Positions 16,801-31,802 are shown, counted from the stretch's first letter. The stretch: DNA of 32,000 bases from Candidatus Scalindua sp. (GCA_031316235.1 JALDRA010000001.1:990001-1022000), one strand, 5' to 3'. Numbers and translations are program-made. Notes: generated from the letters alone by a model not told the origin.

Positions 16801-17599
16801 CTTCCTCAGCTTTATCCTTTTGCTCCCCTAACCGGCTTTTATCTACTCCCCCCTGCCCTTGTTTCGATTTCTCGTTCTTGGCATCCGCTGGTTCACTCTC
16901 TTCCCGTTCACGCTGAGACTCCTCAGAACGCTCTTCCTGTGCAGCTATCTGCTCTTTGTCTCCAGGTTGAACCGTCTCCTTTTCACTCTCTTTTGAGCCC
17001 GGTATCTCAGTGACTGAATCTTTTATCTCTTTGACAATTTTCTCTGTTTCTTCTGGATACATGAAGGGAAGCAGGAGTAGTATTACGAGTAATATAGCAA
17101 CAGGAACTAAAAGTTTTGTTACCGCGGGAAACTTGTGTGGAATGGCCGCCTTTATACCTTTATCATCAAGTTGAGTTGTAATGTCGGAAACAAGCAGATC
17201 TAAAAACCTGTTTGACTCTCCCTGATCAGCATACTCCAGACCGGTAACAAGCCGCTCCTTAAAATGCATTTCTCCGTCTAACAGGCCCGCCGCCTCCAAT
17301 TTCCCGATCCAATTGATAATAATTAATGTAAGTGAGACAAAAAAATAGATCGTGAATCCTGATATCAGGATAATGTACACATAATGGGGTACTTCGATAA
17401 ATTTGCAGGCAATAAGTGTGGCCAGAGCCATCGTCAAACCGATTGCCATGACCGTAAAAAATGCCTTCTCACACCTGAAAATATTATACCTGAAGCGAGC
17501 CTTCTCTAATCTCTCTTCAATCTGCTTTTTAGAAGAATACGCATCTCGGCTTTTATCTTTATTTTCACCTATCACCATAGTTTTTTCCTTATTATTCAC
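13859..17599 (-). CDS. 1246-aa membrane protein with a giant disordered E/K-rich and GQQAGxEA-repeat spacer (first gene of the MoxR operon)
   Basis: Three predicted TM helices within the first ~180 aa. These are followed by ~330 aa of E/K/S/Q-rich sequence, ~580 aa of 8-aa G/Q/A/E repeats and a ~190-aa C-terminal region ending IPLEYEEIIKKIYIEKE. This is the only frame with a plausible start, TM anchor and non-repetitive termini. Confidence 0.75.
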   Translation of the reverse strand: MNNKEKTMVIGENKDKSRDAYSSKKQIEERLEKARFRYNIFRCEKAFFTVMAIGLTMALATLIACKFIEVPHYVYIILISGFTIYFFVSLTLIIINWIGKLEAAGLLDGEMHFKERLVTGLEYADQGESNRFLDLLVSDITTQLDDKGIKAAIPHKFPAVTKLLVPVAILLVILLLLPFMYPEETEKIVKEIKDSVTEIPGSKESEKETVQPGDKEQIAAQEERSEESQREREESEPADAKNEKSKQGQGGVDKSRLGEQKDKAEEEALSKMGERPDETKTLEEEVSELLSNLNNTLNNLDNTTKPGSEDKSKGAEISDVDKQENQQREEQPNQTAERDTEPAERKESEEEKRAEVSQKEREKSEAKPSESQKKEQEQPKTENALAQEKETPDQKPPESQEEEKIPRAPKSKLLQKLAQLFMSNKDKESSPPPIDIPIEDVNKDQAGGQQDKSGQEEESKSSPSKDTSGSPQSETTREKSGMEAEQQESSESGEQEGTDTEQQEGSETDQKPGSESRQQSGSEDEQQEGTDAGQKAGSDAGQQAGAESGQQAGTEAGQQAGAEAGQKAGSDDSQEPGSKTGQKAGADAGQQAGSEAGQQAGSAAEQKAGTEAGQQAGSESGQQAGADAGQQAGSGAGQQAGSAAGQQAGREAGAEAGQQAGTEAGQEAGSEAGQQAGSEAGQQTGSESGQQAGAGAGQKSGTEAGQEAGGEAGQQAGSGASQKAGTEAGQQTGSESGQQAGAEAGQQAGTEAGQKAGAESGQQAGTEAGQEAGSGAEQKAGTEAGQQAGMEAGQEAGAESGQQAGSEAGQEAGSGAEQEAGTEVGQQAGSESGQLAGAEADQQAGTEAGQEAGSEAGQQAGSEAGQQTGSESGQQAGAETGQKSGTEAGQEAGVEPGQQAGTEAGSEAGQQAGTEVGQQAGSESGQQAGADAGQQAGSEADQQAGSEAGQKAGTEAGQQAGSEAGQEVGSEAGQQAGTEAGQQAGAESGQQAGTEAGQQAGSEAGQKAGSEAGQQAGSESGQQAGAEAGQQAGQEAGSEAGQKAGAEAGQTSGLETGQKSGSQGKKMDVADLKREISNQMKELSTQISDLEKQMGVDTSGESSSEGGDASIKDDMKDLARQKQRSIESEEQKGVRELQGNIKETSGPGGSQPGGELYSSEPEKIESSEDAEKFGLNVRGTRDESGTKRESISSGKGEASVKRRLPTVGYDDTAELSTRQAEDDAIENTSIPLEYEEIIKKIYIEKE
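14411..16160 (-). repeat. In-frame 24-nt tandem repeat array (about 70 units by length/period) inside the 1246-aa gene
   Basis: Plus-strand units look like CCGGCTTGTTGGCCCGCCTCTGCA and encode AGQQAG(S/T/A)E variants. The region is markedly more GC-rich than the flanks. All six frames lack stop codons for long stretches. Confidence 0.9.
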
Positions 17600-19580: not shown

Positions 19581-20339
19581 TCACACCTCAACCGTCAAGC
19601 CATCATAAGCCAGTTTAATGTCACTGGGTAATGTACCATTTATCAGATCGTAGTCTACTTCGTGGGCGATATGCGTAAACAGTGTCTTCTTTGGTTTCAG
19701 CTCTCTTGCGATATCAAGTGCCTGTTCAATATTGAAGTGCTTTTCATGGGGGCGTATCCTCAATGCATCAAGGATTAACAGATCAAGTCCTCTTAATTTA
19801 TCCATAGAATCAGAAGGAATATGGCTTACATCTGTTACATAGGCTACATTATCAATTCTGTATCCAGTAACCATTTCCAGACCATGCATTACGTCAATGG
19901 GAATAATTTCCAAGTCGGAGATAGTAATTGATCCCTCTATGAATTCCAGGGTAAATTTCGGTTTACTCCCATTGGAAATTGTCTCTTCAAATGCATAAGA
20001 AAACATCTTCTCTATTTGATTTAATGTTTCTTGAGATCCATACACGGGAATCATTTTCTTCTGCCTGATGTTAAAGTGCCTCAAATCATCCAGCCCTAAA
20101 ACATGGTCAGCGTGAGCGTGCGTCAATAACACGGCGTCTACTCTCTTTACCTTATTAATCAGACACTGAATACGTAATTCTGTCGCTGCATCTATCAGGA
20201 TATTATGCTCTCTCCTTGATACCAGGATTGAAGAACGTGTCCTTGAATTTTTCGGATTGTCAGAAATGCAGACACTGCATTCACAACCAATCATAGGGAC
20301 ACCATATGATGTCCCTGTACCCAGAAAAGTAATTTTCAT
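19581..20339 (-). CDS. MBL-fold metallo-hydrolase (PhnP-like)
   Basis: HAHADH zinc motif and the N-terminal MKITFLGTGTSYGVP. The start is set at ATG 20339, which forms an ATGA overlap with the MATE stop codon. The tracked ORF extends 6 codons further. Confidence 0.8.
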   Translation of the reverse strand: MKITFLGTGTSYGVPMIGCECSVCISDNPKNSRTRSSILVSRREHNILIDAATELRIQCLINKVKRVDAVLLTHAHADHVLGLDDLRHFNIRQKKMIPVYGSQETLNQIEKMFSYAFEETISNGSKPKFTLEFIEGSITISDLEIIPIDVMHGLEMVTGYRIDNVAYVTDVSHIPSDSMDKLRGLDLLILDALRIRPHEKHFNIEQALDIARELKPKKTLFTHIAHEVDYDLINGTLPSDIKLAYDGLTVEV

Positions 20340-21676
20340 ACCTTTACCTTCTCCCATCTCCCCGATCTAAATATGACGTATACGGCAATTGAACGAAAGA
20401 TCCAGTCAAGCGCCACCCCAAACCATATCCCAGCAAGTCCCCATTGTAACACGATCCCAAAAACATAGGCAACCGGTAAATGAAAACATAGTGTACCCAC
20501 TATCGTAATAATCATGAGGCTCAGGGTGTCGCCTGCTCCCCGCAAACCTCCGGCATAGACCATGTATATTGCCAAAGCAGGCTGCTCTAAGGCTGCAATC
20601 ATTACACAAAGTGCGCTCAGAGCCAGAACCTCCTGCTCGGGATGGAAGAGTTTCGACATCGGTTTCGCAAGGGTCAGGAAAATTATAGCAAAAAACCCCA
20701 TAACGGTAAGGGCGATCAAACAGTTCCTCTTCACACTTGATCTTGCAAGGTCAATTTTCCCCGCCCCGAGGCTTTGCCCCACAAGGGTGGCAGTTGCCAC
20801 AGCAAAGGCATAACCCGGCATGAATGATATGGCCTCAATTCTGAGGGCAATCTGGTGTGCGGCAAGAGCGACTGTTCCAAGAACTGCAATTATCTTCATG
20901 AAGAAGAGGTAACCTATCTGGGTGAGAAAGGCATCTAACATTGCAGGCAGGGAAATCCTCAGCATTCTCAGTATACGGTCTTTATTGACGTCAACCACGT
21001 ATTTCAGTCTTATTGTCAGGATACCTTTTCCGTTTAAAAGCTTATAAGTAATAAATGACCCTCCGGCGATGTACGCGATTGATGTGCCCCATGCAGCACC
21101 TGCAACCTCCAGACGGGGGAAGAATCCTATACCAAAAACAAGAAGCCAGCTAAAAACTATATTTACACAATTCATAATGAGTGTCATCACCATTGGGGTG
21201 CGTGTATCGCCTGCACCTCTGAATATTGAGCTTCCTGTTAAAATAATCAAACGCAGAATAAAGAAACACGAAATTATCCGTAGATAAGGAGTACCCAACT
21301 CTACAACATCAAGCTCTGCACTCATTACTACCAAGAACTTTTCGGCAAAGAAAAAAATCGATGGACTGATTATGAGGCCGAGGATTACTGATAAAAATAT
21401 GGACTGGCCAGCAACTCTTTCAGCCTCAATCTTCTCTTCAGCACCAATACTCCTTGACACAAGTGCAGTGGTGCCAACATTCAGTGCAGAGAATATCATT
21501 GAAATAATGAAACTCAAGGCGCCTGCCAATCCAACTGCAGCAACAGGAGCTGTTCCCAGCCTGCCAACTATGAGGATGTCCACGATAAAGACGGCCATAT
21601 GTAAGATGTTTTCCATGGCCGCAGGAAGAGCGAGTTTAATGATGTTTTTATTTAAATTTTCCTTTGTTAATTCCAT
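20336..21676 (-). CDS. MATE-family efflux transporter
   Basis: 446 aa, about 12 hydrophobic segments, and the N-terminal IIKLALPAAMENILHM motif typical of the MATE/NorM family. Confidence 0.85.
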   Translation of the reverse strand: MELTKENLNKNIIKLALPAAMENILHMAVFIVDILIVGRLGTAPVAAVGLAGALSFIISMIFSALNVGTTALVSRSIGAEEKIEAERVAGQSIFLSVILGLIISPSIFFFAEKFLVVMSAELDVVELGTPYLRIISCFFILRLIILTGSSIFRGAGDTRTPMVMTLIMNCVNIVFSWLLVFGIGFFPRLEVAGAAWGTSIAYIAGGSFITYKLLNGKGILTIRLKYVVDVNKDRILRMLRISLPAMLDAFLTQIGYLFFMKIIAVLGTVALAAHQIALRIEAISFMPGYAFAVATATLVGQSLGAGKIDLARSSVKRNCLIALTVMGFFAIIFLTLAKPMSKLFHPEQEVLALSALCVMIAALEQPALAIYMVYAGGLRGAGDTLSLMIITIVGTLCFHLPVAYVFGIVLQWGLAGIWFGVALDWIFRSIAVYVIFRSGRWEKVKV

Positions 21677-21709: not shown

Positions 21710-21738
21710 TTGACAATTATTACAACAACCGATAAAAT
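21710..21738 (+). promoter_or_regulatory. Candidate sigma70-type promoter facing acpS and the lipid cluster
   Basis: TTGACA-N17-TAAAAT (21710-21715 / 21733-21738) in the divergent MATE/acpS intergenic region. This is a sequence match only, and it would imply a ~200-nt leader. Confidence 0.3.
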
Positions 21739-21944: not shown

Positions 21945-22325
21945 ATGTATACAGGCATCGATATTATTGAGGTTAAGAGGATTGAACGGGTCTTTATTTC
22001 CCATATGGGATTTCTCAGAAGAGTTTTCACGGAAGATGAGGTGAAATATTGCCAATCGAAGAAAAACTGTTTCCAGCATTATGCAGCACGTTTTGCATCA
22101 AAAGAGGCCGTTCTCAAGGCGTTTGGAACTGGTTTAAGAGAAAAAATGAAGTGGACCGACGTAGAAACTCTCAACGAAGAGTCTGGAAAGCCTTATATAA
22201 ATCTCTATGGCAGGGTAAAAGAGTTGGCGATTGAAAAAAATATATGTGAGATTTCAATCTCACTGTCACACTGCAAAGAATACGCAGTTGCACACGCATT
22301 ATTGGTTACACGCAACAAGGAATAA
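21945..22325 (+). CDS. acpS: Holo-[acyl-carrier-protein] synthase (4'-phosphopantetheinyl transferase, AcpS type)
   Basis: 126 aa with MYTGIDIIEVKRIERV and FASKEAVLKAFGTG, both typical AcpS motifs. An alternative TTG start at 21900 has a better SD-like AAGGGA, but it adds a non-conserved extension. Confidence 0.85.
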   Translation: MYTGIDIIEVKRIERVFISHMGFLRRVFTEDEVKYCQSKKNCFQHYAARFASKEAVLKAFGTGLREKMKWTDVETLNEESGKPYINLYGRVKELAIEKNICEISISLSHCKEYAVAHALLVTRNKE

Positions 22326-22503
22326 TCAACAGATTCAGCGTAATAAGCACATACGTTAAAAAAAGATTAAAACATGAACTTGATAATGGGTGAAAATAGT
22401 GTAAAATACCATCCGGTTATTATCCGTTATCTGTAACTTACACTATTTGTCAGGTATATTGTTTCCTTAAATAGGTTTGCCGGACTTTGCGATTGGTCAA
22501 AAA

Positions 22504-23973
22504 ATGAGAAAGTTAATCCTCATAAATCCGCACCCCGTTGGTAATGTCGGGGAGGAGAATGTTTCTGTATTAAATCAGATGCCCGTAAACCTTGGCTATC
22601 TGAAGAAACTGACACCGGAACATTGGGATGTTGATATTATCGACGAAACTCAAGAACTGGCAGTGGATGAAAAAGGAGAGAATCTGCGTTTTGAAAAACC
22701 TGATCTGGTCGGAATTACCTCTGTCAGCTATCAGGCTCACAGGGCATATCAGATAGCTGCAGCATGCAGAAAAAACGGAATTCCTGTTATCATGGGAGGT
22801 GTACATGCGACAAGTTACCCAGAAGAAGCTGCACAATATGTTGATTCTGTCATAATAAGAGAAGCTGTCACGATTTGGGCAGAGATAATTGCTGATTTTG
22901 AGAACAATGCCCTGAAAGAATCATATGATGGCGGCCTCACCCCTATGGAGATGTACAGAGATCTCTACTCAGATCGGGAATTTTTAAAGAATAAGTATAA
23001 GTATCGGTATTCGGGTATCATCACAACTGCCGGATGTCCCTTTAGTTGTGAATTTTGTTCAGTTCCTCAGTTTCAAGGGAAAAAATATCGAGAAAGACCA
23101 ATCGATGATGTATTAAATGAGCTGGAGAAAATTAAAGGAGAGTACAGGGGACTTATCCTGACCGATGAAAATTTCTATGGGCACAGTAAAAAATCAAACG
23201 AAAGAGTACGCAGTCTCTTTAAGAAGATGGTAGAGAGAGGTATATACCAGAATTGGTTTGGTTTTACTTCGTTGAACATTTATCAAGATGATGAGACATT
23301 AGAATATATGGTGAAGAGTGGTTGTGTCGGAGTTCTCATCGGTATTGAATCTATTAATGAAGAGGCGTTAAAGTCAATGAATAAGGGCGTCAATTTGCGT
23401 ATAACCGTGGAAAAATATAAAGAAGCGGTGAAAAATATCCGAAAGCATGGCCTTGCAGTATGGGGTACCATGGTTTTCGGTAATGATAGTGATACTACGG
23501 AAGGTTTTAAAGAAGTGGTTGATTTCATTGTAGATGCAAAGATCGACATTATGACATGCGGTATTTTATGCCCTTTTATTAATACCCCCCTGTACAATAG
23601 ACTTAACGGAGAGAATAGACTCTTCAGGACAAATTTCCCTGAAGATTGGATCTACTATACTTCACATCATCTTACCTATGTACTATCAAGACTCTCTCTT
23701 CAGGAGTTTATTGACGGTCTGGAGTATGTCTTTGAGAAAATATATTCAACTGATGTGATCAGGGAAAAATTCCGAAATGCGAAAACAGAGTTAAATAATC
23801 TTAACGCTGCCATGTTTGCCTTCAGGGTGAATCTGGACTGGCAATATGTCTTTCATCATTTATTGGAAAACTTAAAGCAACTGCAGGCTTCAGGGGCGTA
23901 CGAGGAGGCACGTGAACGCTACAAAAAGATGAAAAGCAGTAAAGATATCGGTTTAGCAAGTGTTAAGTCTTGA
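22504..23973 (+). CDS. B12-binding-domain radical SAM protein (class B rSAM)
   Basis: N-terminal cobalamin-binding-like Rossmann segment (LVGITSVSYQAHRAYQIAAACRKNGIPVIMGGVHATSYPEEA), followed by the radical SAM cluster motif TTAGCPFSCEFCSV (CxxxCxxC). The start is chosen at ATG 22504 (MRKLILINP). Confidence 0.85.
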   Translation: MRKLILINPHPVGNVGEENVSVLNQMPVNLGYLKKLTPEHWDVDIIDETQELAVDEKGENLRFEKPDLVGITSVSYQAHRAYQIAAACRKNGIPVIMGGVHATSYPEEAAQYVDSVIIREAVTIWAEIIADFENNALKESYDGGLTPMEMYRDLYSDREFLKNKYKYRYSGIITTAGCPFSCEFCSVPQFQGKKYRERPIDDVLNELEKIKGEYRGLILTDENFYGHSKKSNERVRSLFKKMVERGIYQNWFGFTSLNIYQDDETLEYMVKSGCVGVLIGIESINEEALKSMNKGVNLRITVEKYKEAVKNIRKHGLAVWGTMVFGNDSDTTEGFKEVVDFIVDAKIDIMTCGILCPFINTPLYNRLNGENRLFRTNFPEDWIYYTSHHLTYVLSRLSLQEFIDGLEYVFEKIYSTDVIREKFRNAKTELNNLNAAMFAFRVNLDWQYVFHHLLENLKQLQASGAYEEARERYKKMKSSKDIGLASVKS

Positions 23974-24026
23974 GCAGATACTATTTTTCTTCCTCTCCAC
24001 TATCCGGTTACAAGGTTTCTCAAAGA

Positions 24027-24146
24027 GTGGCTGAACGAAAACTACCCATCTACCGCGTTGCTGTAATAATTCCGTAATCCTCAAGTACATGGGTAGATTG
24101 CGGTTACGAAATCAGCACACCTTGTATCGGGGCAGTTTCCGTTCAA
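24027..24146 (+). promoter_or_regulatory. Conserved intergenic element, copy 1 (upstream of the KS gene)
   Basis: About 120 nt aligning by eye at roughly three quarters identity with 29614-29727. It contains an identical 18-mer ATAATTCCGTAATCCTCA (24066-24083). It ends 134 nt before the KS ATG. The function is unknown. Confidence 0.45.
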
Positions 24147-24280
24147 GTATGAAGTGGTGAGGAACAAATCCGCAGAATATTTTCTCGGAATCAGGCAGGG
24201 ACGAGCATATGGTAATTTTTTTACTACCTGAGTCTTGAGATGTCTCTCATATCGGTTATATTATTTCTGAAGGATGAATC

Positions 24281-25489
24281 ATGTCAAAAGTCGTTGTTAC
24301 GGGTCTGGGATTAGTATTAGCCAATGGTATTGGGGTGAAAAATGCATGGGAAGCGCTTATTCACGGCAAAGATGGCTCAGGGGATGTCACATCATTTGAC
24401 ACCTCACAGTATAAGATTCATCGTGCATGTGAAGTTAAGGATTTCAAGACAGATGTAATATTTGAAAATGAAACTCCTGCCAATACGATCCACAAATATA
24501 CCTATTCAGCAGCCAGGGAAGCATTAAGAGATAGCGGTTTACATGACATCGCCAACTATAATTGCGAAAGGTTTGGTATTGCAATTGGAACGCTTGCAGG
24601 TGAACTCCCCCCATTTGAATATCTGTTACGCAATTCCCCTGAAGACAAAGCTAATGGTTTTGACATGAATATCGCTCTAACATACCCACCATCCTCAATA
24701 ACTTCCCTGCTCTCTGAAGATTTTGGTTTTGAAGGCCCCACTATGGTTTCATTAAATGCATGTTCTTCCGGCAACCACGCTATCGCATGGGCACATGATC
24801 TCCTGTTAAACGGGAAGGTTGATGTGATGCTCGTCGGCGGCGGTGAGTTGATACCGCAAACAGAATTTACCCATTTTCACAATTTAAAGGCTCTCGCTCC
24901 TGAAAAATGTCAGCCTTTTGACAGAGAGAGAAAGGGACTCATTATTGGAGAAGGTGCAGGAATTATGGTAATAGAAACCCTCGATTTTGCAAAAAAAAGA
25001 GGTGCGGGTATTTATGCGGAACTAAGGAGCTCTGGAATGAGTTGTGACGGCCACCACATGACGGCTCCACATCCTGAAGGCGCCGGTGCGATCAGGGCGA
25101 TGCTGGAAGCACTATCAGGTGCCCGGCTCTCATATAAGGATATTGATTATATTAGCGCACATGGCACAGGAACTCCCTTGAATGATCGAATGGAAACGAT
25201 GGCAATTAAATCCGTCTTTAAGGAAAGAGCAAAGAAGATTCCCGCTAGTTCAATAAAATCCATGATCGGCCATACAATGGGTGCAGCGAGCGCAATAGAA
25301 TCGGTCGTAAGCTGTCTCTCGATCAGGAATAACATAATCCCCCCTACGATAAACTATGAAACACCTGATCCTGAATGTGATTTAGATTATGTGCCGAACG
25401 AAGGAAGAGAACTCAAGGTAAATTGCGTATTGAATAATTCCTTCGCATTCGGCGGAAACAATGTCACGAATATTTTCAGCAGATTTTAG
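24281..25489 (+). CDS. Beta-ketoacyl synthase (FabF/KS-alpha type, catalytically competent)
   Basis: Active-site Cys in SLNACSSGNHAI and both His in ISAHGTGTPLND and KSMIGHTMGAASA. Good SD (GAAGGA) upstream of the ATG. Confidence 0.9.
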   Translation: MSKVVVTGLGLVLANGIGVKNAWEALIHGKDGSGDVTSFDTSQYKIHRACEVKDFKTDVIFENETPANTIHKYTYSAAREALRDSGLHDIANYNCERFGIAIGTLAGELPPFEYLLRNSPEDKANGFDMNIALTYPPSSITSLLSEDFGFEGPTMVSLNACSSGNHAIAWAHDLLLNGKVDVMLVGGGELIPQTEFTHFHNLKALAPEKCQPFDRERKGLIIGEGAGIMVIETLDFAKKRGAGIYAELRSSGMSCDGHHMTAPHPEGAGAIRAMLEALSGARLSYKDIDYISAHGTGTPLNDRMETMAIKSVFKERAKKIPASSIKSMIGHTMGAASAIESVVSCLSIRNNIIPPTINYETPDPECDLDYVPNEGRELKVNCVLNNSFAFGGNNVTNIFSRF

Positions 25490-25532
25490 TACACATTCTC
25501 AAACGCATCATTTTTTATGCGTTAGAAAATAA

Positions 25533-26765
25533 ATGAATAAAAAAACTGTAATTACTGGTATTGGTATTGTATCTCCAATTGGTATCGGCCATCGAGAGTT
25601 CTGGAAGAATCTTGTTTCGGGTAATTCCGGCATCACCCCAATGGAATCACTGGATCTTTCAAAATATGAATGCAGAAATGGGGCAGAAGTAAAGACGTTA
25701 AATCCGGCAGATTTTCTCGGGCACAAAGGGCTGAGATACCTGAACAAGGGAACTAAATTTCTTGCTTCCAGTATAAAATTGGCATTAGATGATGCAGACT
25801 TGAACATAGATGATGAGATATCATACCAGACGGGAATTTTAATAGGAACATCCCTGGGTAATTTTTCTCAAACCACAGATTATTTTCATGATATTGTCCG
25901 GGAGAACCCTTCCGGACTCTCACCGATGCAGAGCTATGATGTTGCACTGAATTCTTCAATTAACTACGCCTCCGTCTTTTTCAAGATAAAAGGTTTTGCC
26001 AGGACGATCTCTTCCGGCTTTACTTCGGGAATTGACGCAATCGGCAATGCACATAAATTAATTCAGAATGGGAAAGCAGACATAATCATAGCTGGTGGTG
26101 TTGAACAGATATCGCTGGACCTCTACATGATCTTTTTAATGAGAAAGATGTTGTCTGGTTCAAATGGCGGGGGCAAAGAGATCAGCATGCCGTTTGATAA
26201 AAGACGAAACGGCTTCATCATGAGTGAAGGCAGTTATGTATTCGTAATGGAAAATCTTGATTTTGCCTTGAGTCGCGGCGCAAAGGTGTATGGCGAAGTA
26301 TCGGGGTTTGGGACAATTTTTGCCGGAAACAAAAATTATGATACGAGAAAAAGATTCGAAAAAGCCACGTCCGCAATGCGGGCATGTACGGATGATGCAA
26401 AAGTATCGCTTCAGGATATCGACCTTATTAATGCCAGCGGGAATTCAGACCAATCATCAGACTTTATTGAGGCACAGGCTATTTGCAAACTGTTTGAAAC
26501 AAGAGGTAATGAAATACCGGTATGCGCAGTTAAATCTATTGTGGGAGAGTGCTATGGTGCCTCCGGAGCAATGCAAACGGCAGCATCAGTACTCTCGATT
26601 CAAAACAGTCTCATACCCCCGACAATCAACTGTGAAGAAAAAGACCCCGAGTGCAGCATAAACATAATTCATCAGAAACAAGCAGGAAACATAAGCACGG
26701 CGCTTGTTAATTCGTTTGATTACACTGGAAACAACTCCTGTTTGATTTTAAAGAAATATGAGTAA
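25533..26765 (+). CDS. KS paralogue lacking the catalytic triad (chain-length-factor / KS-beta-like)
   Basis: It aligns colinearly with the upstream KS, but ACSSG -> GFTSG (Cys->Phe), SAHGTGT -> NASGNSD (His->Ser) and IGHTMGA -> VGECYGA (His->Glu). The start lies 43 nt after the KS stop. Confidence 0.8.
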   Translation: MNKKTVITGIGIVSPIGIGHREFWKNLVSGNSGITPMESLDLSKYECRNGAEVKTLNPADFLGHKGLRYLNKGTKFLASSIKLALDDADLNIDDEISYQTGILIGTSLGNFSQTTDYFHDIVRENPSGLSPMQSYDVALNSSINYASVFFKIKGFARTISSGFTSGIDAIGNAHKLIQNGKADIIIAGGVEQISLDLYMIFLMRKMLSGSNGGGKEISMPFDKRRNGFIMSEGSYVFVMENLDFALSRGAKVYGEVSGFGTIFAGNKNYDTRKRFEKATSAMRACTDDAKVSLQDIDLINASGNSDQSSDFIEAQAICKLFETRGNEIPVCAVKSIVGECYGASGAMQTAASVLSIQNSLIPPTINCEEKDPECSINIIHQKQAGNISTALVNSFDYTGNNSCLILKKYE

Positions 26766-28803
26766 GTTATTTGACCCCATTAAAATAGGCAGTATTGAAA
26801 TTAAAAATAGACTTGCCATGTCTGCAATGGATCTAGGATTCACCTCGGATGGTTCGGTAAACGAGCGGTTTATTGATTTTTATGTCGAAAGAGCCCGGGG
26901 AGGAGTAGGTTTAATCGTAATAGGAGGATGTTATCCTGAGATGAATGGGAAGGTATGGAAGAGTATCATCGGCCTTGACAAAGACAGCTTTATACCGGGA
27001 TTAAAAAAGTTTGCAGATACGATGCACGAGAATGACGTTAAAGTTGCCGCCCAGCTCCTTCATGGAGGAAGAAGCGCCTCCTCTTTCTTTACAAAGATGC
27101 GCCCTGTTTCAGCATCAAGCCTGGCCCACGTCAACATAAAACAGGCACCACACGCTCTCACCATACCAGAGATCAAGAAGGTGATCAGGGGCTTTGCCGA
27201 TGCAACTGTACGATTAAAGAAGGCGGGCTTTGATGCGGTTGAGATCCATGGAGGTATGGGCTACCTGATTAATCAATTTCTTACCAGGGCAACGAATGAG
27301 AGGAATGACAGATATGGAGGGAGCCTTCAAAAGAGGATAAATTTTGCCAGGGAAATTGTGATTGCAATAAAAGAAAAAACCGGTAAACGTTTTCCCATTA
27401 TATTCCGCTTATCCGGTGACGATTTCATTGATAACGGGCTCAAGATTGATGAGAGTATTGAGATTGCGAAGGAACTGGAAAAGGCGGGTGTAGATGCATT
27501 CAATATATCTCCCGGTTGGCATGAGAGCCGAATTCCCATAATGCTTATGTCCATCCCGAGAATGTCCTACATCTTCTTGTCTGAGAAGATGAAAAACCAG
27601 GTAAATGTACCCGTCATTGGATCGGTAAGAGTAAACGATCTGGCATTAGCTGAAGAGATTCTGGATAATGGACAGTCAGACTTGATATCGATAGGAAGGC
27701 CCCTCATCGCCGACCCGGAATTACCCAAAAAGTACAGGAAGAAACAGTTCAATGATATCAGAAGGTGTATCGCCTGCAACCAGGGCTGTTTTGATTCACT
27801 GCTAAACTTCAAATCGGTAAGCTGCCTCTATAATGTCAGGGCCGGAAGAGAGCGGGAATTAAAGATCAGGAAGGCCGCGAAAAAGAAAAAGGTAATGATA
27901 ATCGGAGGTGGTCCTGGTGGTCTCGAAGCTGCAAGGGTTGCCGCCCTGCGAGGACATGATGTTTATTTATATGAGAAGAACAGCGTTCTTGGCGGACAAC
28001 TGAGATATGCCTCTATGCCCCCTGGAAGGGAAGAGATAGAAAACGTCATTACGTTTCTCGAGACACAGATAAAAAAATTAAACGTAAAAATTCAATTACA
28101 TGAAAAGGCTGATATTACGGCGATTAAGAAGTTAAAACCAGATGCCGTAATTGCCGCTATTGGAGGCAGCCCCATCATACCTCCTATTCCGGGCATAAAA
28201 GAGAAGAATGTTGTTGTTGCTGAGGAAATATTTGATAAAAAGGTAAAAGTCGGAAAAGAGGTGGTCATTATCGGCGGAGGGACAATTGGATGTGAGGTTG
28301 CCTTGCATATTGCAAAAATGGGAGCAATGAATCCTGAAGTAGCGTGTTATCTTCTGAGAAACAGGGTCATTAATGGTCAGGAGGCTGCAGAATATACCTC
28401 GCGGGGAAGAAGGAATATTACGATCCTGGAAATGAAGAACAAGATCGGTGGCTCTTTTGGCATCTCAACCCGATGGGTCATCATAAAGCAGGTGAAGGAT
28501 GCGGGGATTGAGTGTGTGACCGGTTTGAATATTAGAGAGATTATGACGAAAAAAAATGGAACAAGATCGACAGGAGTAGATTCACAAGATGCAAAAATCT
28601 GCGTAACCTTTGAAAAGGAGAAAAAAATACACTCGATTTTTGCCGATACCGTCGTCATAGCAGCTGGATACAAACCTAATCAAGACCTTATCAGTAAACT
28701 GGATGGAAAAATAGAAGAATTTTATAAAATAGGAGATTGCGTAAAGGTTCGGACTGCCCTTGAAGCCATTCATGAGGGATTTGAAGTCAGTTTAAAATTA
28801 TGA
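26758..28803 (+). CDS. FadH / 2-enoate reductase family flavoprotein (OYE-like TIM barrel + 4Fe-4S + FAD/NAD(P)H domains)
   Basis: N-terminal FDPIKIGSIEIKNRLAMSAM and HGGMGYLINQFL (old-yellow-enzyme fold), CIACNQGC (Fe-S), and the dinucleotide folds IIGGGPGGLEAA and VVIIGGGTIGCEVA. The start overlaps the CLF-like stop by 8 nt. Confidence 0.85.
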   Translation: MSKLFDPIKIGSIEIKNRLAMSAMDLGFTSDGSVNERFIDFYVERARGGVGLIVIGGCYPEMNGKVWKSIIGLDKDSFIPGLKKFADTMHENDVKVAAQLLHGGRSASSFFTKMRPVSASSLAHVNIKQAPHALTIPEIKKVIRGFADATVRLKKAGFDAVEIHGGMGYLINQFLTRATNERNDRYGGSLQKRINFAREIVIAIKEKTGKRFPIIFRLSGDDFIDNGLKIDESIEIAKELEKAGVDAFNISPGWHESRIPIMLMSIPRMSYIFLSEKMKNQVNVPVIGSVRVNDLALAEEILDNGQSDLISIGRPLIADPELPKKYRKKQFNDIRRCIACNQGCFDSLLNFKSVSCLYNVRAGRERELKIRKAAKKKKVMIIGGGPGGLEAARVAALRGHDVYLYEKNSVLGGQLRYASMPPGREEIENVITFLETQIKKLNVKIQLHEKADITAIKKLKPDAVIAAIGGSPIIPPIPGIKEKNVVVAEEIFDKKVKVGKEVVIIGGGTIGCEVALHIAKMGAMNPEVACYLLRNRVINGQEAAEYTSRGRRNITILEMKNKIGGSFGISTRWVIIKQVKDAGIECVTGLNIREIMTKKNGTRSTGVDSQDAKICVTFEKEKKIHSIFADTVVIAAGYKPNQDLISKLDGKIEEFYKIGDCVKVRTALEAIHEGFEVSLKL

Positions 28804-29600
28804 AAGACATACGAATGAACAGGGGTGACAATTCCGGATATCAGCACCTTGAGTATGAAGAGGTAGAGCTTAAGAACAACAGGTATGCCGGAGTCATCAA
28901 GATAAGGAAACCTCCCAGGAACTCTATTGGTTCATGGCTGTTAGATGCACTCTATGACAGGATCGATGCATATGAAAGTGATGATAAGATAGCAGCCATT
29001 ATTATCACAAGCAGCATACGGGGAGTCTTTTGTGATGGTGCGGACAGAAACGAACTGTTCGGCCCATGGATCTCGGGTTTGGTGGCCGAAAAAAACTACG
29101 ATAGATTTATGAGGGCACATGAGATGTATCTGGAGATAGAGAATTGCCAAAAACCTCTTATTGCCGCCCTCAACGGTGTTACCATAGGGGCAGGTCTTGA
29201 GCTCGCCCTTTTATGCGATTTCCGTATTGCTTCTGAAACCGCGTTTTTTAGTCTACCTGAGGCAAAACCTGAATTGAGCATAATACCGGGACTTGGAGGA
29301 ACTATCAGGCTGCCAAAGGTGATAGGTACCGCCCGGGCCAAGGAGATGTTGTATTCAGGTAAGATGATTCGTGCGAAAACAGCGCTTCAATGGGGTTTGG
29401 TGAATAAACTCGCACCTGTGAAGGGTGTCCTTAAAGAGGCGCTCGATTACGCCGAGGTACTGGCACAAAACAGCAGCAAGGCAATAAAGACAATGAAAAA
29501 GTGTATTAACTTTGCAATGGACCACGATACAAGGGAGGGGATAAAATATGAAGTTGGCCTCTTTGCAGAAATTATGCGGCAGAAGCTTGTAAAGACCTAG
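28800..29600 (+). CDS. Enoyl-CoA hydratase/isomerase (crotonase) family protein
   Basis: LIAALNGVTIGAGLELALLCDFRIA and FSLPEAKPELSIIPGLGGTIRLPK. Both canonical catalytic Glu positions appear to be present. ATGA overlap with the upstream reductase stop codon. Confidence 0.85.
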   Translation: MKDIRMNRGDNSGYQHLEYEEVELKNNRYAGVIKIRKPPRNSIGSWLLDALYDRIDAYESDDKIAAIIITSSIRGVFCDGADRNELFGPWISGLVAEKNYDRFMRAHEMYLEIENCQKPLIAALNGVTIGAGLELALLCDFRIASETAFFSLPEAKPELSIIPGLGGTIRLPKVIGTARAKEMLYSGKMIRAKTALQWGLVNKLAPVKGVLKEALDYAEVLAQNSSKAIKTMKKCINFAMDHDTREGIKYEVGLFAEIMRQKLVKT

Positions 29601-29613
29601 CCACGCAGGGTAC

Positions 29614-29727
29614 GTGGTTGAACGAGAACTATCCATCTTACTGCGTTGACGTCATAATTCCGTAATCCTCAGGTATATTCCGGTCACGAATTTATTATGC
29701 AGGTTGTACCCGGGAAGTTCCCGTTCA
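29614..29727 (+). promoter_or_regulatory. Conserved intergenic element, copy 2 (upstream of fabG)
   Basis: Same orientation and order of blocks as 24027-24146, with the identical 18-mer at 29654-29671. It ends 98 nt before the fabG ATG. Confidence 0.45.
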
Positions 29728-29825
29728 GCCACATTGTTTTGTTCAAACACCGGGTTTTCGTTCATGCACTCGTTAAGTTTTTTTGGTAATTTTTTATCAC
29801 TATATTTTCTCCTGGAGGCAAAGAG

Positions 29826-30563
29826 ATGAAAGATAAAGCAGCAATAGTAACAGGCGGCACTAGAGGTATCGGTCGGGCTATAGTCCTGGAGTTAGCAAGA
29901 AATGGGTGTAATGTTGCCTTTAATTATGCAAAGAGCGGGGATCTGGCAAAAGCCCTTGTAACAGAAGTCGAGTCACTCGGTGTCAAGGCCCTGGCAAAAC
30001 AGGCAGACGTGGCAGATTTTGAAGCAGCAAAGAATATGGTGACTGAAGTTAAGGAAGAATTCGGGCAGATTGATTTTTTGATCAACAATGCCGGTGTGAC
30101 CAGGGACAAGCTCCTGGCATTAATGAAAGAGAGCGACTGGGATGATGTGATCAACACCAACCTGAAAAGTGTCTACAACTTTTCCAAGGCAGTAATTATG
30201 ACCATGGTCAAACAGAAGAGCGGGAGCATACTCAACATTACGTCAGTAAGTGGAATTGCCGGAGTGGCGGGACAGACTAACTACTCCGCATCAAAGGCTG
30301 GCGTCATCGGCTTTACTAAGGCCCTGGCCAAGGAAGTTGGAAAGGCAAAAATAAATGTAAATGCTATTGCGTGTGGATTCATTGAGACCGATATGACAGC
30401 TTCACTCCCGGAAGAGTATAAGAATAAGATGATAGATATGACGTCTCTCAAACGATTTGGGAACCCTGAAGAGATAGCCAGGATTGCTTCATTCATGCTC
30501 TCAGAAGACGCAAAATATATTACCGGACATGTTCTCACCGTTGATGGTGGATTGGCATTATAA
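29826..30563 (+). CDS. fabG: 3-oxoacyl-[ACP] reductase (SDR)
   Basis: TGGTRGIGRAI cofactor motif, NNAG, catalytic Ser (ITSVSG) and YSASKAG. 245 aa. Strong SD (GGAGG). Confidence 0.9.
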   Translation: MKDKAAIVTGGTRGIGRAIVLELARNGCNVAFNYAKSGDLAKALVTEVESLGVKALAKQADVADFEAAKNMVTEVKEEFGQIDFLINNAGVTRDKLLALMKESDWDDVINTNLKSVYNFSKAVIMTMVKQKSGSILNITSVSGIAGVAGQTNYSASKAGVIGFTKALAKEVGKAKINVNAIACGFIETDMTASLPEEYKNKMIDMTSLKRFGNPEEIARIASFMLSEDAKYITGHVLTVDGGLAL

Positions 30564-30600
30564 ATCTGTTCCTTTAACCCGCAGTAATGAAACAGTCTGG

Positions 30601-30696
30601 CTGGTTGCTGGTATCACCGGACAAAAAAACGCCGAGGACTTTACCTGCTCCGTTTTTTGCCGGATTTTACCCGAAATCCAGTATGAGATGAGTATA
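30601..30696 (-). repeat. Dispersed structured intergenic repeat, copy E (reverse orientation, 5' and central modules only)
   Basis: The reverse complement reads TATACTCATCTCATACTGGATTTCGGGTAAAATCCGGCAAAAAACGGAGCAGGTAAAGTCCTCGGCGTTTTTTTGTCCGGTGATACC... The canonical 3' hairpin is absent. Confidence 0.75.
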
Positions 30697-30802
30697 ATTA
30701 GAGAAAATTGTTCATGGTTCAGATGTACCGGTCTCTGTAATACGTGACTTCCAATCTCATCAGCCTGGTACATCTGGTAAAAATAAAAGGAGCGAATCTA
30801 GA

Positions 30803-31114
30803 ATGATTTTTTTATTAAAGGTACAAATAAAAAAAATACCAGATGTCCCCGTTAAAGATTTTCTGGGCATCGTGGTCAAGGAGTGGGAATATTTCTTGAG
30901 GATGAAGAGAAGGGGCAAGATCCTTGCCGGTGGTAAATTGGCCGGTGGAAGAGGGGCCGCCGCCATTATTGAGGCTGACTCTAATGAGGAGCTGGACCAG
31001 ATCGTTGCAAACCTGCCGCTTTTTCCTTTTTTTACCGATATTGAAATCACCCCCCTGGTTTCTACGGAAAAAGCCCTGACCGACGTTAAACGGGTTCATT
31101 CGCTCATGAAGTGA
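30803..31114 (+). CDS. Muconolactone delta-isomerase-like (dimeric alpha+beta barrel) small protein
   Basis: 103 aa. LPLFPFFTDIEITPL matches the conserved LPLFPYMDIEV region of muconolactone isomerases as I recall it, and the N-terminal MIFLLKVQIK matches their MLF.V.M start. Strong SD (AAGGAG). Confidence 0.55.
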   Translation: MIFLLKVQIKKIPDVPVKDFLGIVVKEWEYFLRMKRRGKILAGGKLAGGRGAAAIIEADSNEELDQIVANLPLFPFFTDIEITPLVSTEKALTDVKRVHSLMK

Positions 31115-31529: not shown

Positions 31530-31802
31530 ATGAATATTTATGTGGGAAACCTGCCATACAGCGTAACTGAAGCCGATTTGAAAGAGACGTTTTCAGCGTT
31601 TGGTGAAGTAGCGAGTGCGTCTCTTGTCAGTGACAAGTTTTCAGGGCAATCCAAAGGTTTTGGGTTTGTTGAAATGCCAAACAACTCGGAAGCAGACGCT
31701 GCGATCAAGGCTCTGAATGAAAGCGACTTGCAAGGAAGAAATATCAAGGTAAATCAGGCTAAACCAAAAGGTGATAGCCCCCAGCGCAGGCCAAGATATT
31801 AA
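31530..31802 (+). CDS. RRM-type RNA-binding protein
   Basis: RNP2 IYVGNL and RNP1 KGFGFVEM. 90 aa, with a short basic tail. Confidence 0.9.
   Translation: MNIYVGNLPYSVTEADLKETFSAFGEVASASLVSDKFSGQSKGFGFVEMPNNSEADAAIKALNESDLQGRNIKVNQAKPKGDSPQRRPRY

Follow-up and report, generated by a model that had tools for sequence, protein, structure and literature searches.

The closest described relatives of the locus analysed here are two gene clusters of the anammox bacterium Kuenenia. One of them, kuste2802–2805, comprises acpS, a gene for a radical SAM enzyme (rSAM) with a B12 domain, a fabF gene and a gene for a noncanonical ketosynthase (KS), and has already been proposed for ladderane synthesis (Rattray 2009, PMC2649909; Javidpour 2016, PMC4790861). 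It encodes the only AcpS listed for Kuenenia (Rattray Table 1, PMC2649909); when it was expressed in E. coli, no new fatty acids appeared, and the proteins were largely insoluble (PMC4790861). The other, Cluster I (kuste3603–3608), is the field's favourite ladderane cluster. Cluster I encodes amxACP, amxFabZ, the KS pair amxFabF2/amxFabFmut (PDB 9s5h/9s5i), a phytoene-desaturase-like protein (PDH) and a B12-rSAM (PMC10139942), and the KS pair forms a heterodimer resembling a KS with its chain-length factor (CLF), as judged from a crystal structure and assays (PDB 9s5h; bioRxiv 10.64898/2026.05.19.726425). The gain of kuste2805, together with that of kuste3603, kuste3605 and kuste3606 of Cluster I, has been placed by inference at the origin of the anammox bacteria (PMC9387917).

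The window (the whole stretch of 32,000 nucleotides that was analysed) comes from a genome of Candidatus Scalindua, a marine anammox planctomycete, and its triad-less KS is 100% identical to one Candidatus Scalindua sp. protein. An ORF check of the window located eight plus-strand ORFs at 21945–31114, in the order acpS, B12-type rSAM, active KS, triad-less KS, FadH-like, crotonase, FabG and MIase-family; the first four are arranged as in kuste2802–2805, likewise from an anammox organism. The preliminary description, made from the sequence alone, had reported eight co-directional genes of these families, and ORF coordinates, Pfam and NCBIfam domain calls and active-site residues bear it out. 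It had also reported the absence of ACP, dehydratase, enoyl reductase and FabD genes from the window, and this too holds: there is no ACP signature in any of the six frames across the window, and a Pfam scan of the remaining ORFs of at least 100 aa revealed no FabZ/FabA, FabI/K/L or FabD. From the measured spacing (151, 307, 43, −8, −4, 225 and 239 nt in order from acpS to the MIase gene), its 'short gaps or overlaps' are true of the middle genes only and not of the gaps of 151 (178 if the rSAM starts at ATG 22504), 307, 225 and 239 nt. Two of the long gaps each contain one copy of an inverted-repeat element of about 125 nt. A promoter-like site (TTGACA-17-TAAAAT, 21710..21738, + strand; a consensus match only, at 11 of 12 positions) lies in the gap between acpS and a divergent MATE gene. 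The latter belongs to a pair of genes for an MBL-fold hydrolase and a MATE efflux protein (19581..21676, − strand), which is kept beside acpS in Scalindua-type loci (the MATE gene also in Subterrananammoxibius) and is not at this position in Jettenia and Brocadia; the pair is possibly associated with the pathway.

The product of acpS (21945..22325, + strand; PF01648), a holo-ACP synthase (phosphopantetheinyl transferase) orthologous to kuste2802 (58% identity over 122 aa), scores 93.6 bits against TIGR00516 (cutoff 59.8); acpS is directly 5' of the rSAM gene in every anammox locus examined. The rSAM, of class-B architecture and here called W-type (22504..23973, + strand; PF02310 B12-binding and PF04055 domains; orthologue of kuste2803), has the motif CPFSCEFC. 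Its ORF opens at TTG 22477, and since the N-terminal 128 aa of kuste2803 align from residue 10 of that ORF (75% identity), ATG 22504 is the probable start. The W-type orthologues form a clade with 100% bootstrap support, and the whole family, including the Cluster I rSAM, one with 99%. An AF2 model (pLDDT 89) has AprD4, MgmA, TsrM, OxsB, TokK and CysS as its nearest solved folds, at 12–17% identity. AprD4, the nearest, is not known to use cobalamin, so the B12 dependence of the W-type enzyme is only predicted. No NCBIfam family cutoff was reached, the best partial match being to the PhpK methyltransferase family, and membership of the NCBIfam family 'rSAM_ladder_B12' was rejected (75 bits against a cutoff of 360).

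Next come two KS genes, both with PF00109 and PF02801 domains. The first (24281..25489, + strand), which is FabF-like, has the catalytic residues C161/H294/H331; it is orthologous to kuste2804 (60% identity in the N-terminal 126 aa) and paralogous to amxFabF2, with a full-length identity of 48% to 9s5h_B versus 66–69% to the Brocadia and Subterrananammoxibius orthologues. The second (25533..26765, + strand), an orthologue of kuste2805 (59% identity over the N-terminal 127 aa; 38% to amxFabFmut, 9s5h_C, at full length), has F/S/E in place of Cys/His/His with the Lys kept, which is the pattern of Kuste2805 (Phe163, Lys328, Glu333; PMC2649909 Table 2), and is a predicted CLF-like partner. The block thus shares a make-up with Cluster I: one KS is active, the other lacks the triad and has Glu in place of the second His, and the accompanying rSAM belongs to the same family. 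The two clusters differ in the residue that replaces the catalytic Cys: Phe in the block, Val in Cluster I as far as examined (Thr is reported for S. brodae; bioRxiv 10.64898/2026.05.19.726425). The earlier reading of the two genes as a KS/CLF pair gains from the structure and assays of the paralogous amxFabF2/amxFabFmut (PDB 9s5h), and the block's pair, too, probably acts as such a heterodimer on ACP-bound chains. There is also a likeness to Iga11/Iga12 of the highly reducing type II PKS for ishigamide (PDB 6kxd), in which an active KS again accompanies an inactive homologue and ketoreduction, dehydration and reduction fall to discrete enzymes. However, the inactive KS of the block has Phe where the CLF has Gln, its active KS is nearer to FabF (295 bits) than to Iga11 (258) or the Act KS (212), its putative dehydratase is a crotonase and not a hot-dog-fold protein, its reductase is FadH-like and its conserved core includes an rSAM.

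Of the downstream four genes, the FadH-like one (26758..28803, + strand; PF00724 and Pyr_redox_2) overlaps the triad-less KS gene by 8 nt, following it in Scalindua, Jettenia, Subterrananammoxibius and one lineage with GC about 0.5, and is predicted to encode an FMN/4Fe-4S/FAD-NAD(P)H 2,4-dienoyl-thioester reductase. In E. coli FadH we take Tyr166 and His252 to be the proton donors. The block's protein aligns with E. coli FadH (1ps9) over its full length (374 bits), shares its FMN, 4Fe-4S and FAD/NADPH domains, and retains a Tyr and a His aligned with the two proton donors as well as the four cysteines of the 4Fe-4S centre; it reached no NCBIfam equivalog cutoff and, unlike the E. coli gene, sits in a biosynthetic context. 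Overlapping it by 4 nt is the gene for a predicted crotonase-family enoyl-thioester hydratase/dehydratase (ECH; 28800..29600, + strand; PF00378) with both catalytic Glu residues kept. The usual substrates of the crotonase and FadH families are CoA, not ACP, thioesters; we infer ACP rather than CoA substrates for both enzymes here. FabG (29826..30563, + strand) is a 3-oxoacyl-ACP reductase (TIGR01830, 313.1 bits against 297.75), and in metagenome loci in which the upstream flank is present fabG and the MIase gene are always paired. The latter (30803..31114, + strand; PF02426, 51.5 bits against 26.7) encodes a small dimeric alpha+beta barrel protein that retains Glu27 and has ClcF and MIase as its best fold matches. 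As a true muconolactone isomerase it was rejected (TIGR03221 equivalog, 36 bits against a cutoff of 130.6), and it is predicted to be a double-bond isomerase acting by an allylic proton shift.

How far is this arrangement conserved? Over the N-terminal 128 aa, for which the Kuenenia sequences were taken from S2 Table of PMC4790861, the first four products show 58, 75, 60 and 59% identity to kuste2802–2805, and 36–58% to their Cluster I paralogues; by these alignments, the four genes are direct orthologues of kuste2802–2805. The resemblance to Rattray's ladderane candidates (fab genes with rSAM genes) that had been suggested for the locus is thereby made specific, and the finding is in part a rediscovery: what had been treated as an unrecognised pathway has a core known in the literature since 2009. 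That literature describes a complete four-gene cluster, to which Scalindua and Jettenia add the FadH-like, crotonase, FabG and MIase-like genes. Scalindua japonica, S. sediminis and Jettenia share the eight-gene order but not the flanking genes, indicating more than a chance arrangement, and on about ten metagenome contigs the block is present in the same order, in whole or for the most part. The eight genes are thus a conserved block in Scalindua and Jettenia, which we did not find described in the literature searched. The block is rearranged in some lineages: in Kuenenia and Brocadia the downstream four are not adjacent to the core, Brocadia-type loci ending after the triad-less KS and kuste2807 being given as a TPR protein; on other contigs, FadH-ECH-FabG-MIase or just FabG-MIase stands apart from the core; and ECH was not detected in two loci (L167, L169) of the lineage with GC about 0.5. 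Kuenenia transcripts are even across kuste2802–2805 (FPKM 24–35).

The relation to Cluster I can be taken further. The KS, triad-less KS and rSAM show 48, 38 and 50–52% identity to their Cluster I counterparts, compared with 62–73% among Cluster I orthologues. Judged by sequence, the triad is a paralogue of the Cluster I triad, a relationship absent from the literature searched. The block differs from Cluster I in lacking ACP, FabZ and PDH and in having AcpS, FadH, crotonase, FabG and MIase. Outside the anammox bacteria, homologues of both clusters are physically fused (again not found in the literature searched), in a Myxococcota MAG and two high-GC bacteria, and partially in a Blastocatellia MAG. 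Locus L091 runs ACP-FabZ-KS-KS'-PDH-rSAM of Cluster I type (its FabZ scoring 187 bits as amxFabZ type versus 98 as canonical FabZ) and continues directly with rSAM3 and the W-type rSAM, KS and KS', then ECH. L090 has this array without PDH, then MIase-ECH-FabG-ACP-FabH-AcpS; L092, from Myxococcota, is similar, and L081, from Blastocatellia, reads KS-KS'-rSAM (all W-type)-DUF374-rSAM (Cluster I type). Uniform GC content across the fused loci indicates that they are not chimeras, and the L090 cluster was seen in three independent assemblies. FadH is absent from all the non-anammox fused clusters, which also hold genes for MacB/MMPL transporters, AMP-binding proteins and aminotransferases. The W-type KS pair is followed by crotonase homologues in L090 and L091 and by a MIase homologue (47% identity) in L090, and FabG homologues (44–53% identity) occur in L090 and L092; that ECH, FabG and MIase come after this KS pair in distant phyla as well strengthens the proposed link of the downstream four to the core. 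In L172, a distance of 1.7 kb separates FabG-MIase from a complete Cluster I. From the fusions, it seems probable that the block and Cluster I are halves of one ACP-dependent lipid pathway.

In this Scalindua counterpart of kuste2802–2805, fuller in its eight-gene form, we therefore see, with a probability of about 0.6, the second module of a two-module, ACP-dependent pathway resembling fatty-acid or polyketide synthesis, Cluster I being the first and a ladderane-type lipid or its precursor the joint product. AcpS would load a carrier protein, amxACP or another ACP, that must be encoded elsewhere since the window has none. The active and triad-less KSs, paired like their Cluster I paralogues, would add malonyl units to an ACP-bound chain of restricted length; FabG would reduce the 3-keto group; the crotonase may dehydrate the 3-hydroxy intermediate, or hydrate or isomerise an enoyl intermediate; the MIase-like protein could reposition a double bond through an allylic proton shift; and the FadH-like flavoenzyme would reduce an enoyl or 2,4-dienoyl intermediate. 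The W-type rSAM may carry out radical C–H functionalisation (methyl transfer, or C–C bond formation or cyclisation), either while the chain is growing or once it is finished. Jawsamycin synthesis pairs Jaw4, an iterative type I PKS, with Jaw5, a HemN-like and not a B12-domain radical SAM enzyme. As a working analogy only, Jaw4/Jaw5 (PMC13459092) combine a chain-extending synthase with an rSAM by which enoyl intermediates are modified as the chain grows, the same logic as in the 'type c' ladderane proposals of Dietl and Speth. The polyene origin suggested earlier is not supported, polyunsaturated and cyclopropyl fatty acids both being undetected in anammox bacteria (PMC10139942).

Might the genes, alone or with Cluster I, serve instead to make some other modified lipid, for instance a fatty acid with a mid-chain methyl branch such as 10-methylhexadecanoic acid? 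The KS/CLF pairs would then set chain length and the rSAMs, as C-methyltransferases, would methylate unactivated carbons. Anammox bacteria, of which 10-methylhexadecanoic acid is typical, and Acidobacteria contain methyl-branched fatty acids; characterised class-B radical SAM enzymes are mostly methyltransferases, and MgmA, TsrM, TokK and CysS among the structural neighbours, together with the PhpK partial match, point the same way, as does the presence of close homologues of the whole module set in Blastocatellia, Myxococcota and other high-GC bacteria, none of which is known to make ladderanes. Yet the top structural neighbour, AprD4, and OxsB are non-methylases; two KS/CLF pairs, PDH, a special ACP and FabZ and two to three rSAMs would be excess machinery for such a product; and the genes are kept in every anammox genus examined or cited, the gain of kuste2805 and of kuste3603, kuste3605 and kuste3606 of Cluster I having been traced by inference to the group's origin (PMC9387917). 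We consider this alternative unlikely, though it deserves to be taken seriously.

Rather less probable is a chance juxtaposition of a biosynthetic unit (acpS-rSAM-KS-dead KS) with a degradative or auxiliary one (FadH-crotonase-FabG-MIase) acting on unsaturated CoA esters in the manner of beta-oxidation, of which FadH and crotonase are classical auxiliary enzymes. The units are indeed apart in Brocadia-type genomes and several metagenome contigs, and kuste2802–2805 has been called 'a complete cluster' (PMC4790861); but the gene overlaps (8 nt for dead KS/FadH, 4 nt for FadH/ECH), the junction kept between Scalindua, Jettenia and two further lineages, the ECH, FabG and MIase homologues directly after the W-type KS pair in distant fused clusters, FabG-MIase adjoining Cluster I in L172 and a FabG above the equivalog cutoff for 3-oxoacyl-ACP reductases all argue against it. 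Improbable, finally, is a specialised metabolite (a polyene or aryl-polyene-like pigment, or an exported lipid) made by a highly reducing type II PKS in place of a bulk membrane lipid. The KS/CLF architecture, the MATE exporter and MBL-fold hydrolase genes adjoining the Scalindua cluster, the transporter, AMP-binding and aminotransferase genes of the fused clusters and the frequency of antiSMASH-type 'ladderane' calls in non-anammox phyla (PMC9902471) would all fit it; the KS scores favouring FabF over Iga11 and the Act KS, the location here of the sole listed Kuenenia AcpS, the lack of aromatic starter, cyclase or tailoring genes and a core present in all anammox lineages sampled, as fits a core cellular function, would not.

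The preliminary description would have been contradicted by the same syntenic cluster occurring widely in organisms with ordinary lipids and an assigned product; syntenic homologues do occur in Myxococcota, Blastocatellia and high-GC bacteria, which goes part of the way, although no product has been assigned to them. These fused arrays weaken the published claim that the genes are exclusive to ladderane producers, and since their carriers are not known as ladderane makers, the product of the pathway may be something other than ladderanes. Within the anammox group, the two modules together most likely yield a ladderane-type lipid or a required precursor.

The eight co-directional genes of the preliminary description were confirmed by ORF calls, Pfam and NCBIfam domains and active-site alignments. 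They occupy 21945-31114 of the plus strand and encode, in order, an AcpS (21945-22325; TIGR00516, 93.6 bits, cutoff 59.8), a radical SAM enzyme (rSAM; 22504-23973) with an N-terminal B12-binding domain and a CPFSCEFC motif, two FabF-like ketosynthases (KS; 24281-25489 and 25533-26765), a FadH-like protein that combines OYE and FAD domains with an Fe-S site (26758-28803), a crotonase (ECH; 28800-29600; PF00378, 164 bits), the 3-oxoacyl-ACP reductase FabG (29826-30563; TIGR01830 equivalog, 313.1 bits against 297.75) and a 103-aa protein resembling muconolactone isomerase (MIase-like; 30803-31114; PF02426, 51.5 bits against 26.7). The intergenic distances are uneven (151 or 178, 307, 43, -8, -4, 225 and 239 nt, in order). 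Two of the long gaps are accounted for by same-orientation copies of an element of about 125 nt (24024-24150, between the rSAM and KS genes, and 29612-29740, between those for ECH and FabG), with a core about 85% identical over 65 nt, terminal inverted repeats of about 21 nt and a long imperfect hairpin (z about -2.5). Rfam gave no match anywhere in the window, so the element is not a known RNA, and because its exact 16-mer core was absent from the 92 comparison loci we rejected it as a conserved regulator and take it to be a genome-specific repeat; it looks like a small MITE/REP-type repeat.

The first ketosynthase has the active-site residues Cys161, His294 and His331, and its gene adjoins that of a homologue without the triad (the dead KS, or KS'), in which Phe, Ser and Glu replace Cys, His and His while the Lys is retained; this is the arrangement of a KS and its chain-length factor (CLF). 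The FadH-like protein aligns end to end with Escherichia coli FadH (PDB 1ps9; 374 bits), retaining the OYE/FMN domain, the four-Cys 4Fe-4S site, the FAD/NAD(P)H domain and the aligned Tyr and His. Both catalytic Glu residues and the oxyanion-hole motifs (...GAGLELAL... and ...LPEAKPE...) are present in the crotonase, which passes no NCBIfam equivalog cutoff. The MIase-like protein reaches the Pfam gathering score, has a ferredoxin-like beta-alpha-beta fold and keeps Glu27, but falls below the equivalog cutoff for muconolactone isomerase proper (TIGR03221; 36.1 bits against 130.6). An AF2 model made from the single sequence (pLDDT 70, a moderate value that serves for family-level fold confirmation only) best matches ClcF and MIase. 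Glu27 is the position mutated in the ClcF E27A structures, and its role in the family is presumed here partly from those entries.

Might these be ordinary housekeeping fatty acid synthesis genes? That identity was rejected, since the window KS scores 402 bits, below the FabF equivalog cutoff of 494, and canonical FabF, ACP, FabD and FabH are found elsewhere in Kuenenia (kustd1386-1391; Rattray et al., 2009, PMC2649909). The window was also described at the outset as lacking ACP and FabZ genes, and this held: no ACP signature occurs in any of the six frames over the whole window, long intergenic gaps included, there is no FabZ, and none of the other ORFs of at least 100 aa is related by Pfam scan: they make up a Bat/MoxR operon and genes for an AMP-binding enzyme, an MBL-fold hydrolase, a MATE efflux pump and a long protein of repeats.

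A Candidatus Scalindua sp. MAG encodes a protein with 100% identity to the dead KS, more than 100 of whose close relatives come from Scalindua-type sources. The order acpS, B12-domain rSAM, FabF-like KS, triad-less KS is that of kuste2802-2805 in Kuenenia, and recurs in Brocadia, Jettenia, Subterrananammoxibius and other Scalindua species. Across the N-terminal 128 residues (the Kuenenia proteins were translated from the partial genes in S2 Table of PMC4790861, so that only N-terminal parts are compared) the window proteins are 58, 75, 60 and 59% identical to those of kuste2802-2805, against 36-58% for the paralogues of Cluster I (kuste3603-3608), which makes the orthology direct. The dead KS also has the F/K/E pattern tabulated for Kuste2805 (Phe163, Lys328 and Glu333; Table 2 of Rattray et al., 2009); at the His298 position it has Ser, and the anammox orthologues examined, that of Kuenenia among them, have Asn. 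Rattray et al. (2009; PMC2649909) had identified Kuste2802 as AcpS and Kuste2805 as a non-canonical KS with these residues, and had singled out Kuste2803, the B12-domain radical SAM protein, as a candidate cyclase. Later, kuste2802-2805 was synthesised as 'a complete cluster', and its expression in E. coli did not lead to any new fatty acid; the proteins were largely insoluble (Javidpour et al., 2016; PMC4790861). The preliminary reading of the block as a candidate pathway for an unusual, possibly ladderane-type lipid was therefore right in direction, but its core four genes are an already published ladderane candidate, and as such a rediscovery. In Kuenenia, transcripts of kuste2802-2805 are even (FPKM 24-35), lower than those of Cluster I (28-122) and higher than those of the kuste3335-3352 cluster (3-26).

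Current work favours Cluster I, comprising amxACP, amxFabZ, amxFabF2, amxFabFmut, PDH and a B12-rSAM (PMC10139942). In the PDB the window KS and dead KS best match chains B and C, respectively, of 9s5h, which, from residue patterns and a preprint (bioRxiv 10.64898/2026.05.19.726425), we take to be the amxFabF2/amxFabFmut heterodimer. With identities of 48 and 38% to these chains, against 62-73% among true Cluster I orthologues, the window pair was rejected as orthologous to amxFabF2/amxFabFmut, and no ACP, FabZ or PDH gene lies beside the pair and the rSAM within the 32,000-nt window. Within the window-type group (the window, Brocadia locus L001 and Subterrananammoxibius locus L002) identities are 73-76% for rSAM, 66-69% for KS and 50-53% for dead KS; within the Cluster I group (L003, L004 and 9s5h) they are 62-73%, and between the groups only 33-53%. 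These two separate orthologue groups, together with the rSAM tree, indicate that the window's rSAM/KS/dead-KS triad and that of Cluster I are ancient paralogues. All the dead KSs of both types have Glu at the second His position. The CLFs of aromatic type II PKSs have Gln at the catalytic Cys position, where the window dead KS has Phe; among the dead KSs Gln was seen there only in L091, a non-anammox locus.

The rSAM has a Rossmann-type B12-binding domain at its N-terminus and a CxxxCxxC core, which is class-B architecture; its use of cobalamin is putative. The AF2 model (pLDDT 89) superposes on AprD4, MgmA, TsrM, OxsB, TokK and CysS at 12-17% identity, and AprD4, the closest solved fold, carries a B12 domain yet is not known to depend on cobalamin. 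These neighbours include both methylases and non-methylases, which the fold search does not separate, so that the enzyme may catalyse either methyl transfer or other radical chemistry, the fold match favouring neither. In a neighbour-joining tree the window-type rSAMs form a clade with 100% support, inside a larger family (99%) made up of the window type, the Cluster I type and a third type, with other B12-rSAMs outside it. The third paralogue, which forms its own 100% clade, lies between the Cluster I-type and window-type rSAM genes in L090 (8502-10004) and L091 (7105-8643). Membership of the NCBIfam family rSAM_ladder_B12 (TIGR04072) was rejected for the window enzyme (75.1 bits against the 360 required); the Cluster I type (85 bits) and third type (75.5 bits) also fail it, and none of the three passes any curated NCBIfam cutoff.

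The conserved unit extends beyond the published four genes. The same eight genes in the same order are found in Scalindua japonica, S. sediminis and Jettenia, with different flanks in each; in Subterrananammoxibius the block runs through FadH, and in two Brocadia-type genomes it ends after the dead KS (in Kuenenia, kuste2807 is listed as a TPR protein). Since the order is common to Scalindua- and Jettenia-type lineages, the eight-gene arrangement is probably ancestral and has been rearranged in some. S. sediminis has an IS200/IS605-type Y1 transposase gene between KS and dead KS (L085, 9274-9765), which may disturb their coupling if the pair must be made together, and Jettenia has an extra 217-aa gene with a weak DUF8196 match between rSAM and KS (L086, 8034-8687) that the other lineages lack. 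At about 3 kb beyond its dead KS gene, and adjoining an ISL3 transposase, a Brocadiaceae locus (L087) has downstream a run of eight nearly evenly spaced ORFs of 44-48 aa on one strand (14311-16380), which probably form an array of tandem repeats. When the MIase-like protein was used to seed a metagenome scan, 80 loci were obtained, all with a GC content of 0.33-0.55, among them full eight-gene blocks, FabG-MIase pairs alone, and FadH-ECH-FabG-MIase sets with more than 5 kb of unrelated DNA upstream; one lineage with a GC content of about 0.5 has acpS-rSAM-KS-KS'-FadH-FabG-MIase, with no ECH detected. One metagenome contig (L172, 1-8861; GC 0.48) has the FabG-MIase pair in convergent orientation to a complete Cluster I (ACP-FabZ-KS-KS'-PDH-rSAM), at a distance of 1.7 kb, which again connects the downstream genes of the window physically with Cluster I. 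A search of genome contigs with the rSAM alignment listed matches without Scalindua, Kuenenia or Jettenia, and is not to be read as a phylogenetic profile.

The preliminary description had looked to a synteny search against ladderane producers; outside anammox bacteria that search found clear syntenic homologues in other phyla. A Blastocatellia MAG (L081; assembled from a JGI soil metagenome too, as L082) encodes a KS, a dead KS and an rSAM with 52, 38 and 57% identity to their window counterparts, together with a DUF374 (acyltransferase-like) protein and an rSAM of the Cluster I type. In a bacterium of 65% GC (L090, present in three independent assemblies) a single array comprises ACP, FabZ-like, Cluster I-type KS, dead KS and rSAM, the third-type rSAM, window-type rSAM, KS and dead KS, MIase-like (47%), ECH (38%) and FabG (53%), ending with ACP, FabH, AcpS (36%) and a KS. 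A contig of 57% GC (L091) encodes ACP, FabZ (187 bits to the amxFabZ crystal structures against 98 to canonical FabZ), a KS 61% identical to amxFabF2, a dead KS 48% identical to amxFabFmut and a PDH 49-50% identical to anammox PDH, followed by three rSAMs, window-type KS (54%) and dead KS (42%) and ECH, and finally an MDR-type dehydrogenase, an aminotransferase and an AMP-binding enzyme; a Myxococcota MAG of 70% GC (L092) has a similar array. GC is uniform across the fused loci, so they are not chimeras with anammox DNA.

Such operon-level fusion in several phyla is strong evidence that the window block and Cluster I serve one pathway. On the same grounds, and at least for clear syntenic homologues, the arrays contradict the statement that Cluster I occurs exclusively in ladderane producers (PMC10139942); earlier antiSMASH-type 'ladderane' calls in other phyla, made without gene-level analysis (PMC9902471), are too coarse to bear on the cluster. 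We tentatively suggest, with a probability of roughly 0.3, that the fused arrays of Myxococcota, Acidobacteriota-type and other high-GC bacteria define the complete gene set of one pathway (ACP, an amxFabZ-type dehydratase, two KS/CLF pairs, PDH, two or three paralogous B12-domain rSAMs, crotonase, FabG, MIase-like and AcpS), and that this pathway has become divided, in anammox bacteria, between Cluster I and the window block.

Some neighbouring genes deserve mention here. The MBL-fold hydrolase and MATE efflux genes (19581-21676, minus strand) overlap by 22 nt and diverge from acpS; in Scalindua-type loci the pair keeps this position, as the MATE gene does in Subterrananammoxibius, and the pair could be a candidate for product release and export. 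The Myxococcota cluster also contains an MBL-fold gene (L092, 14431-15330), with no similarity to the window's detectable by blastp. At 17 kb upstream of the block (3191-4720, minus strand) is a gene for an AMP-binding enzyme (acyl-CoA/acyl-ACP ligase-like), and L091 and L092 end with an AMP-binding gene; given the distance, that of the window is probably unrelated to the block. Downstream, a 90-aa single-RRM protein (31530-31802; NCBIfam NF058537 'RNA-binding regulator', 115 bits against 100) has a gene that is not conserved beside the cluster in other genomes. Adjoining the Bat/MoxR operon (MoxR-DUF58-BatA-VWA) is a 1246-aa ORF without a Pfam match (13859-17599, minus strand), in which about 550 central residues are tandem octapeptide repeats of the 'GQQAGxEA' type, and these account for a local rise in GC to 54-62% and a strong AT skew.

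How might the block work? By homology to their paralogues in Cluster I, the window KS and dead KS would form a KS/CLF-like heterodimer; a physical heterodimer of this kind, controlling chain length, has been shown only for those paralogues (bioRxiv 10.64898/2026.05.19.726425; PDB 9s5h), which decarboxylate malonyl-amxACP and favour C6-C8 over C16 probes (same preprint). From family chemistry, AcpS would activate the carrier, FabG would reduce the 3-keto group, the crotonase would dehydrate or isomerise, the FadH-like enzyme would reduce an enoyl or dienoyl thioester, and the MIase-like protein would shift a double bond by proton transfer. In L091 the MDR-type dehydrogenase occupies the corresponding position after ECH, and may perhaps be a non-orthologous enoyl reductase. 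Each KS/CLF pair adjoins its own rSAM paralogue, which suggests a module-by-module coupling of chain extension to radical modification; speculatively, this fits 'ring-by-ring' or 'two-part' proposals better than the modification of a finished long chain.

In the literature searched we found no account of the eight-gene extent of the conserved block, of the paralogy between its triad and that of Cluster I, or of fused super-clusters in other phyla, and within that scope these points appear to be new. They make the pathway question more testable, but weaken the link to ladderanes specifically, which stand as a candidate product on the sequence evidence. The data caution against treating these genes as markers of ladderane producers, and against calling amxFabZ and amxFabF 'anammox-specific'. 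To our knowledge, how ladderanes are made is still unknown more than twenty years after their discovery (reportedly by Sinninghe Damste et al. in 2002), there is no genetic system for anammox bacteria, and current biochemical work has concentrated on Cluster I alone. Should the block and Cluster I be the halves of a single pathway, reconstitution would need both, and with them four overlooked genes, those for the FadH-like reductase, crotonase, FabG and MIase-like protein; the compact non-anammox fused clusters offer a ready-made minimal gene set and an alternative source of proteins. If that pathway is ladderane synthesis, the window would encode the second half that has been missing, the failure of Cluster I alone to give anything in E. 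coli would be explained, and ladderane-like lipids (polycyclobutane or otherwise radical-cyclised) or their precursors would be made outside anammox bacteria, by organisms from which the genes may be easier to express.
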